A stretch of DNA of 64,000 bases from Candidatus Bathyarchaeota archaeon (GTDB lineage Archaea > Thermoproteota > Bathyarchaeia > TCS64). The DNA lies in assembly GCA_963771885.1 (NCBI GenBank), contig CAVYVF010000023.1, positions 352,001 through 416,000 on the forward strand. Direction: 5' to 3'. Position numbers and translations under genes: made by a program. Shown piece after piece: positions 2,522 through 63,873 of the stretch (its first letter is position 1; each line of letters opens with the position of its first letter). The notes below the pieces were generated by a model, which did not search any database, was not told the DNA's origin, and was given only the letters and a program-made list of their open reading frames with translations.

Positions 2522-4062
2522 TGACTTGTCCGAAGGTTCGACCATATCACGCAACGGTCTGGAGCGAGCCCCTCATCCACGAACTCGGACGCGAGGGGGA
2601 GAGAGGCGTCATCCTCCCAGCCGTCGAGGCGGAGATAACGGAGAGCGTCGGTGAAGTCGAGTCGCTCATTCCCAAGAAGATGAGGCGGAGGGGGAAGCCG
2701 GAGCTCCCCGAGCTCAGCCAGCCCCAGGTCCTTCGCCACTGGCTACACCTGAGCCAGATGACGCTTGGCATGGAGGGGGACATCGACCTCGGCGTCGGCA
2801 CATGCACTATGAAGTACAGCCCCAAGGTGAACGAGGAGCTCGCCGCAATGATCTCGGGGATGCATCCCGACCAGCCCGAGGAGACGATGCAGGGGCTACT
2901 GGAGTTAGCGTGGCGCTTCGGCGACGTCTACCTCCGGGAGATCAGCGGGATGGAGGCGTTTACGTTCCAGCCTCCGGGCGGCTCGGCGGGTGCCTTCAAC
3001 AATGCCGCCATCATGAGGAAGTACCACGAGCTGAACGGTGAGTTGGGGCAGCGGGACGAGGTCATCACGACAATCTTCAGCCACCCGTGCGACGCTGCGT
3101 GCCCCGCGACGGCGGGCTTCAAGGTGGTTACTCTGTATCCGGACGAGGAAACGGGACACCCCAGCGTCGAGGCGCTTAAGGCGGCGGTCAGCAAGCACAC
3201 AGCGGGGATATTCGTCACCAACCCCGAGGACACGGGCATATTCAACCGCGACATTGACGAGTGGACGAGGATAGTCCACGAGGCAGGTGGACTCTGCGCC
3301 TACGACCAGGCGAACCTCAACGCGGTGATGGGCGTAACACGGGCGAGGGAAGCGGGCTTCGACATGAGCTTCTTCAACTTGCACAAAACGTTCAGCAGCC
3401 CACACGGTTCGTCTGGGCCGGGGTCGGGGGCGGTAGGCGTTACCAAGGAGTTGGAGGACCTGCTTCCCATCCCCGTAATCGTGAAGAAGAAGGAAAAGTT
3501 TCACCTCGACTATAATCGCCCGAAGAGCATCGGGCGTGTACGCGACTTTCTCGGTAACCTGCAGGTTGTCGTACGCGCCTACGCGTGGGCGGTGGCGATG
3601 GGCGCCGAGGGGCTCAGGGAAGCGGCTGAGGTCAGCATGATAAACAACCAGTACCTCAGCGAGAAGATGAGGGAGGTTCCTGGGGTCTCTAAGCCCTACG
3701 GTGGGATGCGACTCGACCAAGCGCGGTGGAGCCTCGAGAAGCTCAAGAAGGAGACGGGCTGCGGGATTGGCGACGTAAACAAGCGTGTCATCGACTATGG
3801 TGTACAGAGCTTCTTCACTAGCCATCATCCCTGGATAGTGCCCGAGCCATTCACCCCGGAGCCATGCGAGACCTACAGCAAAGCTGACATCGACTACTGG
3901 GTTACCGTGCTTAAGCGGGTCTGCGAGGAGGCTTACGAAGACCCGAAGATATTGAAGAATGCGCCGCACAACTCGTCGATACACACGATCGACGTGGCGC
4001 CGTTAGACGATCCGATGCGTTGGGCGATGAGCTGGAGGGCGTACAGGAGGAAAATGAAGTGA
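2518..4062 (+). CDS. gcvPB: Glycine dehydrogenase (decarboxylating) subunit 2
   Basis: GTCTMKYSP, TNPEDTG and PLP-lysine motif NLHKTFSSPHG; ATG overlaps the gcvPA stop. Confidence 0.92.
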   Translation: MMTCPKVRPYHATVWSEPLIHELGREGERGVILPAVEAEITESVGEVESLIPKKMRRRGKPELPELSQPQVLRHWLHLSQMTLGMEGDIDLGVGTCTMKYSPKVNEELAAMISGMHPDQPEETMQGLLELAWRFGDVYLREISGMEAFTFQPPGGSAGAFNNAAIMRKYHELNGELGQRDEVITTIFSHPCDAACPATAGFKVVTLYPDEETGHPSVEALKAAVSKHTAGIFVTNPEDTGIFNRDIDEWTRIVHEAGGLCAYDQANLNAVMGVTRAREAGFDMSFFNLHKTFSSPHGSSGPGSGAVGVTKELEDLLPIPVIVKKKEKFHLDYNRPKSIGRVRDFLGNLQVVVRAYAWAVAMGAEGLREAAEVSMINNQYLSEKMREVPGVSKPYGGMRLDQARWSLEKLKKETGCGIGDVNKRVIDYGVQSFFTSHHPWIVPEPFTPEPCETYSKADIDYWVTVLKRVCEEAYEDPKILKNAPHNSSIHTIDVAPLDDPMRWAMSWRAYRRKMK

Positions 4063-45882: not shown

Positions 45883-45958
45883 TGGTGCGGTCGCCGGGAT
45901 TCGGACCCGGGTTTCCTGCGTGGCAGGCAGGTATCCTACCAGGCTAGACTACAACCGC
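45883..45958 (-). tRNA. tRNA-Gly(GCC), CCA encoded, no intron
   Basis: GCGGTTG acceptor pairing with CGACCGC-A-CCA; anticodon arm CCTGC-CTGCCAC-GCAGG; T arm CCGGG-TCCGAAT-CCCGG. Confidence 0.95.
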
Positions 45959-55470: not shown

Positions 55471-55868
55471 CCGGAGCCCTTTGATGACGGTATCTATCTG
55501 CCTCTTGGTGCTCCTGATCGCCATGCCGACGAGGTTGAGGTCTTTCCTCCTTCACTGAGGCGACGGCGGCGCGGTTGTCCGCGTCGTTGTAGGTTTTGAA
55601 GAGCTCCTCAGTATAAATAGTAAACCTTCATGTTCCTTTTCTTGGCACGCTCGTAGACTTCTTTTATCTGATCTCGGTTTGCGGCGAAGACGAGAATGGG
55701 CTGTACACTCATGGGGAGATACTTGTTGCCGCTTGCGTCGACGTAGGGTTCGCCCACGATCTTCTCAGTGCCGGCTATCCCACTTACAGTGAAGGCGGTT
55801 ACGTTTAGCTTCTGCCAGATGGCGAGATCCTCCCTAACGATTACGACTATCTTCGTGTCAAAATCCAT
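55459..55868 (-). CDS. DUF2000 family protein, two +1 frameshifts (55622-55624, 55543-55545)
   Basis: DL..WQKLNVTAF and YVDASG. Corrected tail reads IYTEELFKTYNDADNRAAV...DLNLVGMAI...KGLRLHP*. Confidence 0.75.
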
Positions 55869-55899: not shown

Positions 55900-56520
55900 T
55901 TAGGGGACGCCGCCGAGGTACTCGAACCACGCGATTCGGGCTGCTACGGACCGCCAGGGGCGCCACAGCTCGCCGATCTCCTCGAACTCCTCGGCCGACG
56001 GAGGACGGGGGAGCCCCTTGATGCGGGTTACTGCGGAGATGAGTGCGAGATCGCCCCTAGGCCAAACGTCGAGGCGGCGCAGCGCCATGAGGAGATATAT
56101 GTCAGCGCTCCAGCGCCCGATGCCCTTCAAATCCATAAGCCTGAGCCTGGCCTCGTCGTCGCCGAGTCCATTCAGTTCATCGAACCTGAACGAACCGTCA
56201 AGTACTCTCTCCGAGAGGAGCCGTACGTAGTGGATCTTTTGGCGGCTGAAGCCTATTCTCTTCAGCTCCATGTCGCTGAGGGTGAGGAACACCTCTGGAA
56301 CCGGTTCACCTATCCTCTCGGCAAGACGGCCGTATGCGGCTCGGGCGGATGAGAGGGAGACTTGCTGTTCCAAGATAATGCGTGTGAGTGTGGAGAACCC
56401 GGGTGGACGCGCCCAGAGAGGCGGAGGGCCGTGGCGCGCCACGACAGCGGCAAGGTCAGAATCTCGTTCGGTGAGAGCCCTTACCGCGCTGTGCAGAGTT
56501 TCCTCGTCGAGCAGCCCCAT
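55900..56520 (-). CDS. AlkA-family DNA-3-methyladenine glycosylase (HhH-GPD)
   Basis: ILEQQVS..SA, LKGIGRWSA, DVWP.GD and WRPWRS. Confidence 0.9.
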   Translation of the reverse strand: MGLLDEETLHSAVRALTERDSDLAAVVARHGPPPLWARPPGFSTLTRIILEQQVSLSSARAAYGRLAERIGEPVPEVFLTLSDMELKRIGFSRQKIHYVRLLSERVLDGSFRFDELNGLGDDEARLRLMDLKGIGRWSADIYLLMALRRLDVWPRGDLALISAVTRIKGLPRPPSAEEFEEIGELWRPWRSVAARIAWFEYLGGVP

Positions 56521-56579
56521 ACAAAGTCAAACAGCACGGCACCTGGAGGCTGATAATCCTTGCCAGAAAAATTTGGGCC

Positions 56580-56876
56580 CTATTCCTTTACGTTTGTTAT
56601 TTCGGCGTCCTCATGTAGTGCAGACGGGAACTTGGCGAGGTATTGAACCCAATCTTGGAGCTGCGTCTCCGGGTGCGCAGCAACGAATGCCTCGTGCTTC
56701 TTGCAGTGCCGGCCTACAAACTTAGGGTCGGCCTTTATGACCATGTGCATTCTCAACGCTCCGGGGCCCTGATCGGTCTGGAAGCCACACCCCTCAACAG
56801 GGCACGTAAACAGGCTTATGCTCCCCCTCTGCTTGTCGAGGAGGTAATATCTCTTGTACCTTTCATCTATTTCCAA
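56580..56876 (-). CDS. Small C2H2-type zinc-finger protein
   Basis: FTCPVEGCGF...ALRMH...HCKKH; RBS GGGAGGAG before the TTG start. Confidence 0.7.
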   Translation of the reverse strand: MEIDERYKRYYLLDKQRGSISLFTCPVEGCGFQTDQGPGALRMHMVIKADPKFVGRHCKKHEAFVAAHPETQLQDWVQYLAKFPSALHEDAEITNVKE

Positions 56877-56892
56877 CGATTACTCCTCCCGA

Positions 56893-57064
56893 CTGTGGCC
56901 CCGGCGGCCCTCGCCATCTGGGGTGTTTGAAGAATGTGTCCGCCGCTTTACGCGGTCAGGTTCGGCCTCTGCCCGGGCCGCCGGGTGGGCGATGGGGGAT
57001 CCGCCCAACTCTGGATTCTAAATGGCTTAGTTGTATGATCTCCGCGGCTCACCGGGCCGCTCAG
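56893..57064. ncRNA. Unclassified structured RNA (cis-leader or small ncRNA)
   Basis: Terminal stem GTGGCCCCGGCGGCC / GGCTCACCGGGCCGC encloses hairpins CCGC-tttac-GCGG, CCCGG-gccg-CCGGG, TGGGCG-N10-CGCCCA and CAACT..AGTTG. Confidence 0.6.
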
Positions 57065-57248
57065 AGCCATGTTAGTCTTGCATAAAGGGTGTAATAAGCT
57101 TACTGCACGCCGACGCTAACGGTTCAACACATATCCCTATTTAACAGAGCTTTTTCATACCTTCGGCATTTAACTGGAAAACAGCCCCAGATCGGTAGTC
57201 AACCTTTAAGTAGACTCTTTCCCAACGACGAAATGAGGGAATCCACCA

Positions 57249-57464
57249 ATGAAGTACACGATAGAGGTAGACAGGAACAATTGCATTGCATGCAGTGTCT
57301 GCTATGGTACTGACCCAACACACTTCGAGAGCGACGCCTCCGGCAAATCCCGGGTCATAGGAGGAACTACAAACGGCACATCCGTCGGCGCCTTCGAGGA
57401 CCTTAAAGAGGACGCCCAGAGAGCCTCGGACTCCTGTCCGGTCACAGCCATTACTATAAAGTAG
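57249..57464 (+). CDS. Mono-cluster ferredoxin
   Basis: CIACSVC...CPVTAI. Confidence 0.9.
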   Translation: MKYTIEVDRNNCIACSVCYGTDPTHFESDASGKSRVIGGTTNGTSVGAFEDLKEDAQRASDSCPVTAITIK

Positions 57465-61363: not shown

Positions 61364-61459
61364 GGATACTAAGGCTCGTCTTCTCAATCGTCCGTGTGGA
61401 GTAGGTTTGAGACTCCTCTTACCCTCCACGAGACGATGAACAAGGAGAAAAATGGAAAA

Positions 61460-63873
61460 ATGAATGGTAAAAAAACACTACCATTGATAGTAATTGCTTC
61501 TCTAATGCTGTCAATTCTACCTTCAATGATGTTCGCTAGCGCTGCCCTCAGTGCTCCAATTCTATCCTCTGGCTCTGGTTTAAAGGGACAGACAATAGAG
61601 GTCACTGGTGGTACAGTTCCTGCAGGCACAGTAGTGTATCTCTACTGGGATGACTCCACCATTCCATGGAATGGTGTAAAGGGGCTTCTAAACAGCACAA
61701 CGGCTGCTGCTGCCGGTACCTATGAGGTCTGGTTTGATGTCCCTGAGGCAACTGGTGGTAACCACTACCTCTGGATAAAGACTACAACTGGCGGAATAGC
61801 CGATGTTGTTTCAATTGTCTTCGTAGTCAACTCAAGTTTGGAGGTCAGTCCCAGCAGGGGTCAACCTCTCGACACAGTGACTGTATCTCTATCTGGCTTT
61901 GGAAATGCTGCTAAAGTCCAAGTTCTATTCAATGGAGTTCTAGTCGTAACTCCCACCACTAAACTCTATCGGTTCCGCGAGTACAACTTTCAAGGTACCT
62001 GATCTAGCCGATGGTACTTACTCCATCACTAACAACGGAACAGCTCCAGCTGTAGACTTTCATAATTGGCCCAACGATCACAGTGACCCCAACCTCCGGC
62101 CCAGTTGGAACAGTTGTTTCAATCACGGGAAGAGGATTTACTCCAATGGCCAATGGTGTCGTTCAGGGTAACCTATTTGTCGATGATGGCATTAGATCCT
62201 GCTTGCTGGATTACCACTACTGTTCCAATGACTGTTGATGCAACTGGCAGAATAAGATTCAATGCTGTAATTGCACAAACAAGCGATGATGGCGACTTCG
62301 TACTTGTCCTTGATTCTGCTGCTGGTTACGCTCAGGTCGACTTCGAGGTTACGGCCCTTGCAAAGACTACTGTAACTCCCGGCTTTGGTGCACAGGCATC
62401 TACACTCACGGTCTCAGGTGTAAACTTCCCCAAGATCGCAGGTGAGGATGTAACCTTACAACTTACTGATGGCCTTACAACGTTACACTTGGTACTGTTA
62501 CTACTTTGGCTGATGGTACCTGGAGTAAGAATGTCAAGGTACCTGCCGTTGCTGATGGAAAGTATGACGTAGTGGCAAATGCTGCTGGTTACAACATCGC
62601 GGATATTGCAGCCTTCAAGGTAGGCACGATGAACATTATCCTCGGTGAAGATGAAGGTCCTACGGGTCTTCTCGTCTGGTTAACCGCCAACGGCTTTGAA
62701 CCAAACGAAGCCTGGAACGCAACCATCGGCGATGAAGAGATCGGCAGCGGAACCGTATCCGCAACTGGTACAATCAGCGCTACATGGAGAGTTCCACAGT
62801 TAGCGGTCGGTACATACACAATAACTGTATGGGATATATTCAACGAGATCGCATTAACCACAACCTTCACGGTAACAAAGACCACGACAGTGACCCTTAG
62901 CGTAGCAAGCGCTCCAGTGGACTTCAAGGTTGGAATCGCTGGATATGGATTCTCAGACGATCTCACTAACACACTCACCTTCGTAATTTACAACAAGACC
63001 AGCACAGGTGCACTAGACTTCTGGTGGACCCCAACAACCATCACTGACGCTACTCTAGAAGATGGCGTGATCCACGAGGACGCCGCCTGGGTAGTCGATG
63101 ATGTACTCAGCAAGGGCAACTACTGGATGAACGTCACTGACATAGATGACTACGCCGTAACGGTACCCTTCACAGTTGGCGATGTACACGCAGTTGCACA
63201 GACTCGCAAAGCTTCATTCGCGCTCGGCGAAACTATCTCCTTCCTACTTGAGCACAGCTTCGGTAACCAGGATCCAATCTGGGGCAGTGTCCTCAAGATC
63301 TACAACCCCAGTGGGGTTCTAGTCTTTGACGGAGACATGCTCACAACCTGGACCAAGACTGGTCTCTGGTACACGGCTCCATACTCCAGCCAGACCGCTG
63401 GTGGTAACCCAATGATCATCCCACAGGATGCAGCAATTGGCACTTGGAGTTGGAAGTGGGTAGACGCCGACGATGAAACCGCCGCAACTGGCACTTTCGC
63501 AGTGACTGAGATCGCAGCTGGATCAGTTGACGAGAAGATCGCTGCTCTCACAACCCAGATCGCAGCAGTCACTACAAACGTGAACAACCTACAGACCACA
63601 GTCGCCAGCGTAGCGACGACCGCGACGGCAGCCTCGAACGCCGCCACGGCAGCCTCGACGGCAGCAAGCGCAGCCGCCACGGCAGCCACGGCAGCCTCCG
63701 CGGCAGCCACCGCAGCAGGCGCAAAGGCTGACGCAGCCAAGACTGCAGCAGAGAGCGCAGCGGCCGCAGCAAACGGCCTCACGACGCTAGTCTATGCAGC
63801 CATCGGTGCAAGCCTCATAGCCGCGCTCGCCGCAATCGTCGCGCTGATGCAGATCAGCCGCAAGATCGCGTAA
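61460..63873 (+). CDS. S-layer/cell-surface glycoprotein-like with Ig-like beta repeats, Ala/Thr stalk and C-terminal TM anchor (about four frameshifts)
   Basis: Signal peptide, Thr/Val/Gly-rich repeats, N-x-S/T sequons, Ala/Thr coiled coil and LVYAAIGASLIAALAAIVALMQISRKIA. Three track ORFs join via shifts near 61961, 62058, 62194 and 62475-62490. Confidence 0.8.

Follow-up and report, generated by a model that had tools for sequence, protein, structure and literature searches.

The window is the whole stretch of 64,000 nucleotides that was analysed (G000:C23:352001-416000), and its named relatives are MAGs of Bathyarchaeia. The part of it flagged in the first-pass annotation comprises a minus-strand open reading frame (ORF) of 98 aa at 56876-56580 together with the intergenic block that precedes it; the flanking genes are that of an HhH-GPD glycosylase on the downstream side and that of a ferredoxin, divergently oriented, on the upstream side. 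Inspection of the sequence bore out what had been described there, i.e., a GC-rich intergenic block, a TATA-like CTTATTA, an RBS-like GGGAGGAG and an ORF with FTCPVEGC...LRMH; an anti-SD matching GGGAGGAG is present at the 16S 3' end of the same genome. The features of the locus are collected in Table 1.

Table 1. Features at the structured RNA and zinc-finger gene locus (window coordinates)
Feature	Position	Strand	Remarks
Promoter block, conserved	57091..57120	-	GTTA word ~47 nt upstream of RNA, then BRE/TATA-like box CTTATTA 57098-57092; putative function
Structured RNA, 172 nt, single-copy in genome	56897..57068	-	20 distinct homologues aligned; one match in G000
Closing stem P1, 5' arm	57054..57068	-	P1a 57068-57062, P1b 57060-57054
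Hairpin P3, variable loop	56987..57006	-	57006-57002 with 56991-56987; 96.9% of cells paired
Conserved core: hairpin P4 and pseudoknot partner	56964..56985	-	56985-56982 with 56975-56972; P4 loop 56979-56976 can pair with 56967-56964
Hairpin P5	56943..56955	-	94.2% of cells paired; 3/4 pairs with double changes, mostly group A vs B
Closing stem P1, 3' arm	56897..56910	-	Pairs with 57068-57054
Shine-Dalgarno-like sequence GGGAGGAG	56883..56890	-	Outside RNA fold; from sequence
98-aa C2H2-like protein	56580..56876	-	C25, C30, H44, H61; Bathyarchaeia-limited family; predicted zinc binding
Oligo-T tract, probable terminator of unit	56567..56571	-	After ORF stop codon

Relatives of the 98-aa protein were detected in 14 of 61 related genomes with a single query and in 42 of the 71 genomes of the family with a profile, and protein scans yielded 69 metagenome loci and 26 genome loci, a few of which are unrelated weak matches. 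An HMM made from five upstream regions picked up the element with high scores in 19 of 111 loci, a set that includes several duplicates, and in each case it preceded the gene. The covariance model R1 was built from 14 close homologues (group A) and run on 85 further loci (366,806 bases), where it gave 6 matches at 5 distinct loci, all directly upstream of the zinc-finger gene and down to 35% protein identity. Four of the five are diverged copies before a longer protein of 130 aa (group B); the fifth, L080, precedes a 35% identical protein. Since every match fell exactly upstream of the gene, position serves as an independent control of the model. Taken together, 20/20 homologues lie upstream of a zinc-finger gene in the same orientation, with 12-22 nt to the start codon in 19/20, and the RNA was not found apart from the zinc-finger gene in the genomes and metagenome loci searched.

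The range of the RNA is narrow, i.e., one Bathyarchaeia genus among the genomes searched, plus metagenome contigs. In whole genomes R1 matched 7 of 71, all from the genus of the window (its own genome and 6/17 others; 0/53 in other genera); one of these matches (G017) is located at the end of a contig, where the first codons of the protein still come after it. Within the genus the distribution is patchy, with the RNA in 7/18 genomes and none found in 11/18. A refined model (R2) gave two matches in 150 genomes of the class, both already known, and a core pattern run on 401 genomes of the phylum, a sample without other family members, matched one of them, the window's own genome. In 10 selected genomes, of which 7 have a zinc finger without the RNA, R2 yielded two weak partial matches; both fall inside ORFs and were rejected. 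Viral contigs held no protein relative, no match to the strict pattern and 10 matches to the loose pattern, none fitting R2, and phage records gave no match; these range-search negatives cover the sets searched, and strict filters lose weak matches.

Three groups of loci deserve a remark of their own. L090 (genome G012, ~2864-3237) and the corresponding locus in L006 and L028 have kept the ferredoxin neighbour and lost the promoter, the RNA and ~20 codons from the start of the gene; the truncated gene looks like the result of a recent cassette loss, as far as the sequence goes. L080 (2960-3213) holds the most diverged RNA-bearing gene, with no ordinary start codon after the SD-like sequence. 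The group-B promoters (L027, L029, L030, L091) carry TTAGCTAA-like palindromes further upstream.

Across the 20 homologues the RNA is 168-177 nt long. A single covariance-model match in G000 led us to reject paralogous copies in the genome. The closing stem brings the two ends together: P1a (7 bp) is paired in 95% of cells, with a double change in 4/7 pairs, and continues as P1b to ~14 GC-rich bp, P1b being supported by folding and not by a pair count. The mean pairing probability of P1 is at least 0.7 in 17/20 homologues, and when the core is held fixed in folding the first 35 nt form 10-26 long-range pairs in 20/20 rows. Inside the closing stem come a variable region, then P3, P4, the probable pseudoknot and P5, which in a few rows is not formed in the same register. 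The core holds 12 of the 35 columns that are conserved in at least 19/20 rows. Three of the four pairs between the P4 loop and 56967-56964 are invariant, and the fourth shows one double change and three non-pairs; we therefore call this pairing a probable H-type pseudoknot. Over the 24 pairs counted, 95.1% of 465 cells are paired and 12/24 pairs show double changes (20 homologues); 0/500 shuffles reach the observed values and slid structures pair 30-55%, figures to be read with the provisos that the alignment was fitted to the covariance model, that relatedness inflates the shuffle test and that many double changes amount to the single A/B split or to misaligned rows (L030, L027). In 16/18 rows the nucleotide identity to the window over the RNA equals or exceeds that over the adjoining part of the ORF, a comparison in which this part of the ORF is shifted in register for group B and values near 50% are about background.

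The fold kept by the homologues differs from the one proposed at first. The closing stem then drawn, 56895-56909 with 57046-57060, belongs to the minimum-energy fold of the plus strand, and the homologues keep a minus-strand stem instead (57068-57054 with 56910-56897), so that the RNA starts 4 nt outside the stretch as originally delimited. Folding of 56885-57065 against shuffles gave z -1.53 for the plus strand (12/200 shuffles equal) and z -0.08 for the minus strand; since folding of the single sequence is not beyond chance, the case rests on the relatives. The first-pass annotation had left the orientation undecided, with promoter geometry favouring the minus strand and G-U pairs leaning slightly to the plus strand. 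In the close homologues the promoter keeps its distance from the minus-strand RNA, the homologue alignment has 27 G-U cells versus 16 A-C cells on the minus strand, and the minus strand folds better against shuffles in 16/20 homologues, though not in the window itself. Transcription of the RNA from the minus strand is thus read from the sequences as most likely. The broader proposal of an undescribed structured RNA linked to the zinc-finger gene gains support from conservation, pair variation and the fixed linkage.

The promoter block is conserved along with the RNA. A TTAT lies 28-30 nt before the first GG of the RNA in 15/15 group-A homologues, and a manual count placed the GTTA word at the same position in 15/20 homologues. 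No second copy of the block was found in the genome (matrix score 44.9, next best 16.7), and a regulon with a common promoter word was rejected on that genome matrix scan. A T-run follows the stop codon of the zinc-finger gene in 12/12 RNA-bearing loci displayed as well as in the window, and no T-tract was found directly after the RNA in the homologue loci, which argues for one transcription unit. The genes flanking this unit of promoter, RNA, gene and terminator vary from locus to locus, and promoter, RNA and gene therefore travel together.

The RNA was compared with the known classes. That it bears no SRP, RNase P or tRNA signature, as noted at the outset, agrees with the Rfam check that had been proposed: no Rfam model matches at the element, and the sole match at gathering score in the window (Rfam 15) is a tRNA-Gly(GCC) at 45883-45958 on the minus strand. 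At E<=10, the region 56500-57300 gave two chance-level matches far below the cut-off, and 10 homologue loci gave three matches, none on the element. RNase P RNA, SRP RNA and 5S rRNA were all found over cut-off elsewhere on C23, and identity with any of the three was rejected. The RNase P gene occupies C23:455651-455945 and the SRP gene C23:4201-4512. A C/D or H/ACA guide RNA was likewise rejected, there being no conserved K-turn and boxes (a K-turn-like motif occurs only in the window and three close rows, and just group A and L080 have an ACA behind the stem) and no rRNA complement beyond chance length (at most 9 nt against the rRNA operon, versus a mean of 9.7 in shuffles). A complementarity search also disposed of an antisense function against rRNA, 5S, RNase P, SRP or the RNA's own mRNA. 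A BHB-excised or circular RNA was rejected as well: no BHB stands at a common place in the 20 homologues, the scan giving only chance flanks of 2-3 bp and none in five sense rows, and no joints were seen in the four metatranscriptome runs described below. A literature search turned up no description of this RNA, and the supplementary motif lists of large comparative screens might hold one. Judged by its sequence, the RNA represents a new family without Rfam match.

Riboswitches called for a separate comparison, as the position of the RNA is typical of them (5' of a gene in the same orientation in 20/20 homologues, at a short distance from the start codon in 19/20). Pairing between the P3 loop and the SD exceeded the non-cognate mean in 10/20 rows, which is the chance level, and a P3-loop/SD pseudoknot was rejected accordingly. 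In the rows inspected the SD lies outside the fold. With the SD outside the fold, chance-level loop/SD pairing and no T-tract, no expression platform (terminator or SD-occluding helix) was found in the homologues; archaeal factor-dependent termination would leave no trace of this kind. The 5' arm of P1b can form an alternative local hairpin in 6/20 rows, including the window (probability at least 0.3).

The protein encoded after the RNA shows the conserved spacing C-x4-C-x13-H-x16-H in the protein alignment, and the classical C2H2 spacing is C-x2-4-C-x12-H-x3-5-H. Its initial description as a Zif268/TFIIIA-like finger is accordingly right in a loose sense, the finger being C2H2-like, and wrong as to spacing, the last His standing 16 residues on. 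Among 26 members of the protein family, none matched Pfam zf-C2H2; there was one weak C2H2_ASCIZ match (E=0.089), and Pfam and NCBIfam held no family at a meaningful score for the 98-aa protein. The AlphaFold model (pLDDT 83) predicts strands followed by a helix at 38-49, and a fold search gave no clear match, with zinc-finger chains only at Z 2.5-2.9 or E>6. These Pfam, NCBIfam and fold searches led us to reject a known fold or family. A PDB sequence search returned one weak match, a chain of transcription factor IIIA (E=0.023). The nearest Atlas clusters are unnamed, and distant matches in the representative library are mostly long proteins that align over several short segments surrounding the Cys motif.

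A tree of 66 distinct rows out of 82 extracted (the truncated G012 copies and L029 were left out) placed the RNA-bearing proteins in one clade (98/99) on a long branch, comprising 18 rows with the RNA and one without upstream DNA, whose contig starts inside the gene; L080 has a long branch and is unplaced. A C-terminal tail is present in 14/15 distinct RNA-bearing proteins and generally lacking in RNA-less ones, and the group-B proteins (L027, L029, L030, L091) have a charged N-terminal extension of ~30 aa. A more basic protein in the RNA-bearing lineages was rejected, the median net charge being -2 in both groups. Orthologues without the RNA occur in 35 genomes of four other genera (30/32 genomes in one of them); in the RNA-less loci inspected, a TATA-like word stands just before the RBS and leaves no room for the RNA. 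Presence of the protein without the RNA in 35 genomes implies an RNA-independent role or another ligand. In the genus with 30/32 (L012-L014 and related loci) the RNA-less gene follows two genes that we take to encode ribosomal proteins, a context that suggests a conserved housekeeping role. At L008 and L010 (~130-230 nt upstream of the gene), and at L092 and L094, the RNA-less gene has an apparent tRNA gene with an intron as its neighbour on the other strand, and the ORFs downstream of the RNA-less gene are presumably RNase P protein genes.

Contigs from 4/4 metatranscriptome runs compared (X1, X5, X7 and X13, from four studies and among 24 runs listed) cover the RNA element; such contigs show neither strand, ends nor level, and DNA present in RNA libraries can stand behind contig cover. 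Five contigs of run X7 lie over the element and are 99% or more alike, and one contig of X1 (56860-57054) links the 3' arm with the first part of the ORF. In two studies contigs end at 57054, where P1b has its inner edge, and one stops at 56911; the stops at the P1b edge give a weak hint of a processing site. Contig depth was 474/371 (X7), 24 (X1), 21 (X13) and 18 (X5) in the element bins, and 0 (X7), 3.6 (X1), 0 (X13) and 9-13 (X5) in the ORF bins; neighbour genes had none except a chance piece of 35 nt. This pattern would fit an abundant free RNA, a reading that we discounted because genes cannot be ranked by the depth of contigs and a lack of cover is no proof of anything. With a query of 801 nt, no run among the 20 with matches contained half of its words, the top share of 0.23 being about the share of the RNA in the query. 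No contig joints were found in the four runs. Loose contig ends in runs X5 and X7 over window positions 56911-57054 show further variants of the RNA, a source of more homologues.

We propose, with a probability of about 45%, that the element is a stable RNA which is co-transcribed with the zinc-finger protein, released from the front of the transcript, and forms a trans-acting ribonucleoprotein. Transcription would start at or just before the first GG of the RNA, and the two RNA ends would pair in the 14-bp GC-rich stem to give a self-contained, nuclease-resistant domain that could persist alone after the downstream mRNA has been trimmed or transcription has stopped. The pseudoknot core would be the functional surface of the RNA, and the small zinc finger, made from read-through transcript, would bind the RNA to form the particle acting in trans. 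An already existing zinc-finger gene may have acquired the RNA at its front in this lineage, with the protein changing afterwards. We favour a stable RNA since the element opens at the predicted start site, is closed off by the pairing of its ends, holds a steady length and has no expression platform that we could find, and since the protein has also changed in the RNA-bearing lineage. The R1 matches in the new loci, all upstream of the zinc-finger gene, may be counted on its side, as may the joint loss of promoter, RNA and ~20 codons in G012; the contig cover in 4/4 runs supports it too, and the OLE-OapA complex offers a possible precedent, having been traced from gene adjacency (PMC11332333). 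Against a stable RNA count its constant presence beside the gene at fixed orientation and distance with no terminator of its own, a protein that is not basic and exists without the RNA in 35 genomes, and its patchy occurrence (no RNA in 11/18 genomes of the genus). For raiA RNA, variable distance and orientation to the neighbour were used as an argument against cis action (PMC10861870); turned around, that argument makes the present element, with its fixed linkage, look cis-acting.

A cis-acting leader, i.e., a riboswitch or attenuator in which the P3-P4-pseudoknot core would be the binding site for a metabolite or a metal ion and would govern read-through or translation, is a tentative contender that comes close behind the stable RNA. 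It would account for an element that in every case stands immediately 5' of one gene, with orientation and short distance fixed, for the compact near-invariant core resembling an aptamer pocket, for a P1b 5' arm able to enter the long-range stem or a local hairpin in 6/20 rows including the window, and for a T-tract that comes only after the ORF. The SD, however, is outside the fold, loop/SD pairing shows no co-variation, 14/20 rows have the alternative hairpin weakly or not at all, and the zinc-finger gene gives no metabolic clue; natural archaeal riboswitches are also rare, the fluoride riboswitch being the only one shown experimentally as of 2021 (PMC8241225). In a more specific form, which we consider unlikely, the pseudoknot core would be a ligand pocket (for zinc or a metabolite) of an archaea-native riboswitch class controlling a C2H2-like regulator, possibly read out together with the protein, that arose in one Bathyarchaeia lineage before the older gene. 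In ribosomal-protein leaders the protein binds its own leader and represses its own synthesis. Autoregulation of that sort, with the zinc finger binding its own 5' leader and shutting off its own synthesis, is suggested by the strict linkage and by the RNA-bearing proteins forming a changed clade with an extra tail; it is improbable in our estimate, as an RNA of 172 nt that has four helices and a pseudoknot, preceded by a conserved promoter, is elaborate for such a job, RNA-less orthologues manage without a leader, and the SD is not occluded.

Two further explanations carry little weight. The contig ends at 57054 in two studies and at 56911 in one give a weak hint of transcript cleavage, by a ribozyme or at a processing signal, as a means of setting mRNA stability, and a compact pseudoknot core with invariant unpaired bases would suit it; we regard it as very improbable, since no Rfam ribozyme model matches, the X1 contig runs uncut through the 3' arm, no joints were seen, and a strong helix could halt reverse transcription at the same place. 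Still less credible is an element that does not act as RNA at all, i.e., a DNA control region, the end of a mobile element or an N-terminal coding extension. Its single copy, the retained pair variation that tolerates G-U, stops in all three sense frames of the window's copy, length differences that are not multiples of three, the absence of any nuclease or recombinase gene within the unit and a promoter upstream of the element all speak against this, in spite of the weak single-sequence folding and the changing neighbours of the cassette.

Several known systems resemble the present one in part. Like OLE with OapA (PMC11332333), it is an orphan structured RNA beside the gene of a possible protein partner, binding here being a prediction. 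OLE is ~600 nt long, bacterial, widespread and partnered by a membrane protein, unlike the RNA here, which is 172 nt, archaeal, found in one genus, next to a soluble zinc finger and without Rfam match. With the raiA motif RNA / ModT (PMC10861870, PMC11706538) it shares the character of a single-copy structured RNA that has riboswitch-like features and no expression platform. The raiA RNA differs in distance and orientation from neighbour to neighbour and has been shown to be abundant and trans-acting; the present RNA is fixed before one gene, matches no Rfam family and is known from sequence and contigs. TFIIIA/5S offers a resemblance on the protein side, in a C2H2-like finger start (CPxxGC...LRxH) beside a multi-helix RNA and the weak PDB match (E=0.023). 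TFIIIA binds 5S rRNA. Unlike that pair, the protein here has one finger only, in which 16 residues separate the two His, and the RNA is not 5S, whose gene lies elsewhere. Some riboswitches have H-type pseudoknot aptamers. Such riboswitches and the archaeal fluoride riboswitch (PMC8241225) are matched in the location 5' of one gene and in the compact conserved pseudoknot core; unlike known riboswitches, our RNA has no Rfam class match, no terminator or SD-occluding helix that we could find, and no ligand clue from the gene.

Few structured RNAs have been described in archaea outside the housekeeping and guide classes. The present family comes with a candidate partner and a built-in control, namely orthologues with and without the RNA, and so allows direct tests of RNA recognition by an archaeal C2H2-like finger and of the way in which new RNA-protein pairs arise; were the core to prove a ligand pocket, it would represent a riboswitch class native to archaea. 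The system has a narrow known reach, a single genus among the genomes searched and some metagenome contigs, with an uncultured host lineage of soil and sediment and no functional clue from neighbour genes.

Two minor observations concern other genes of the window. The DUF2000 gene at 55608-55868 (minus strand) spans just 80/133 model positions, possibly through truncation or a frameshift. Another gene, at 61394-63873 (plus strand), probably encodes a surface-layer protein; it appears as three consecutive ORFs (61394-62002, 62105-62572 and 62506-63873) and is possibly frameshifted.
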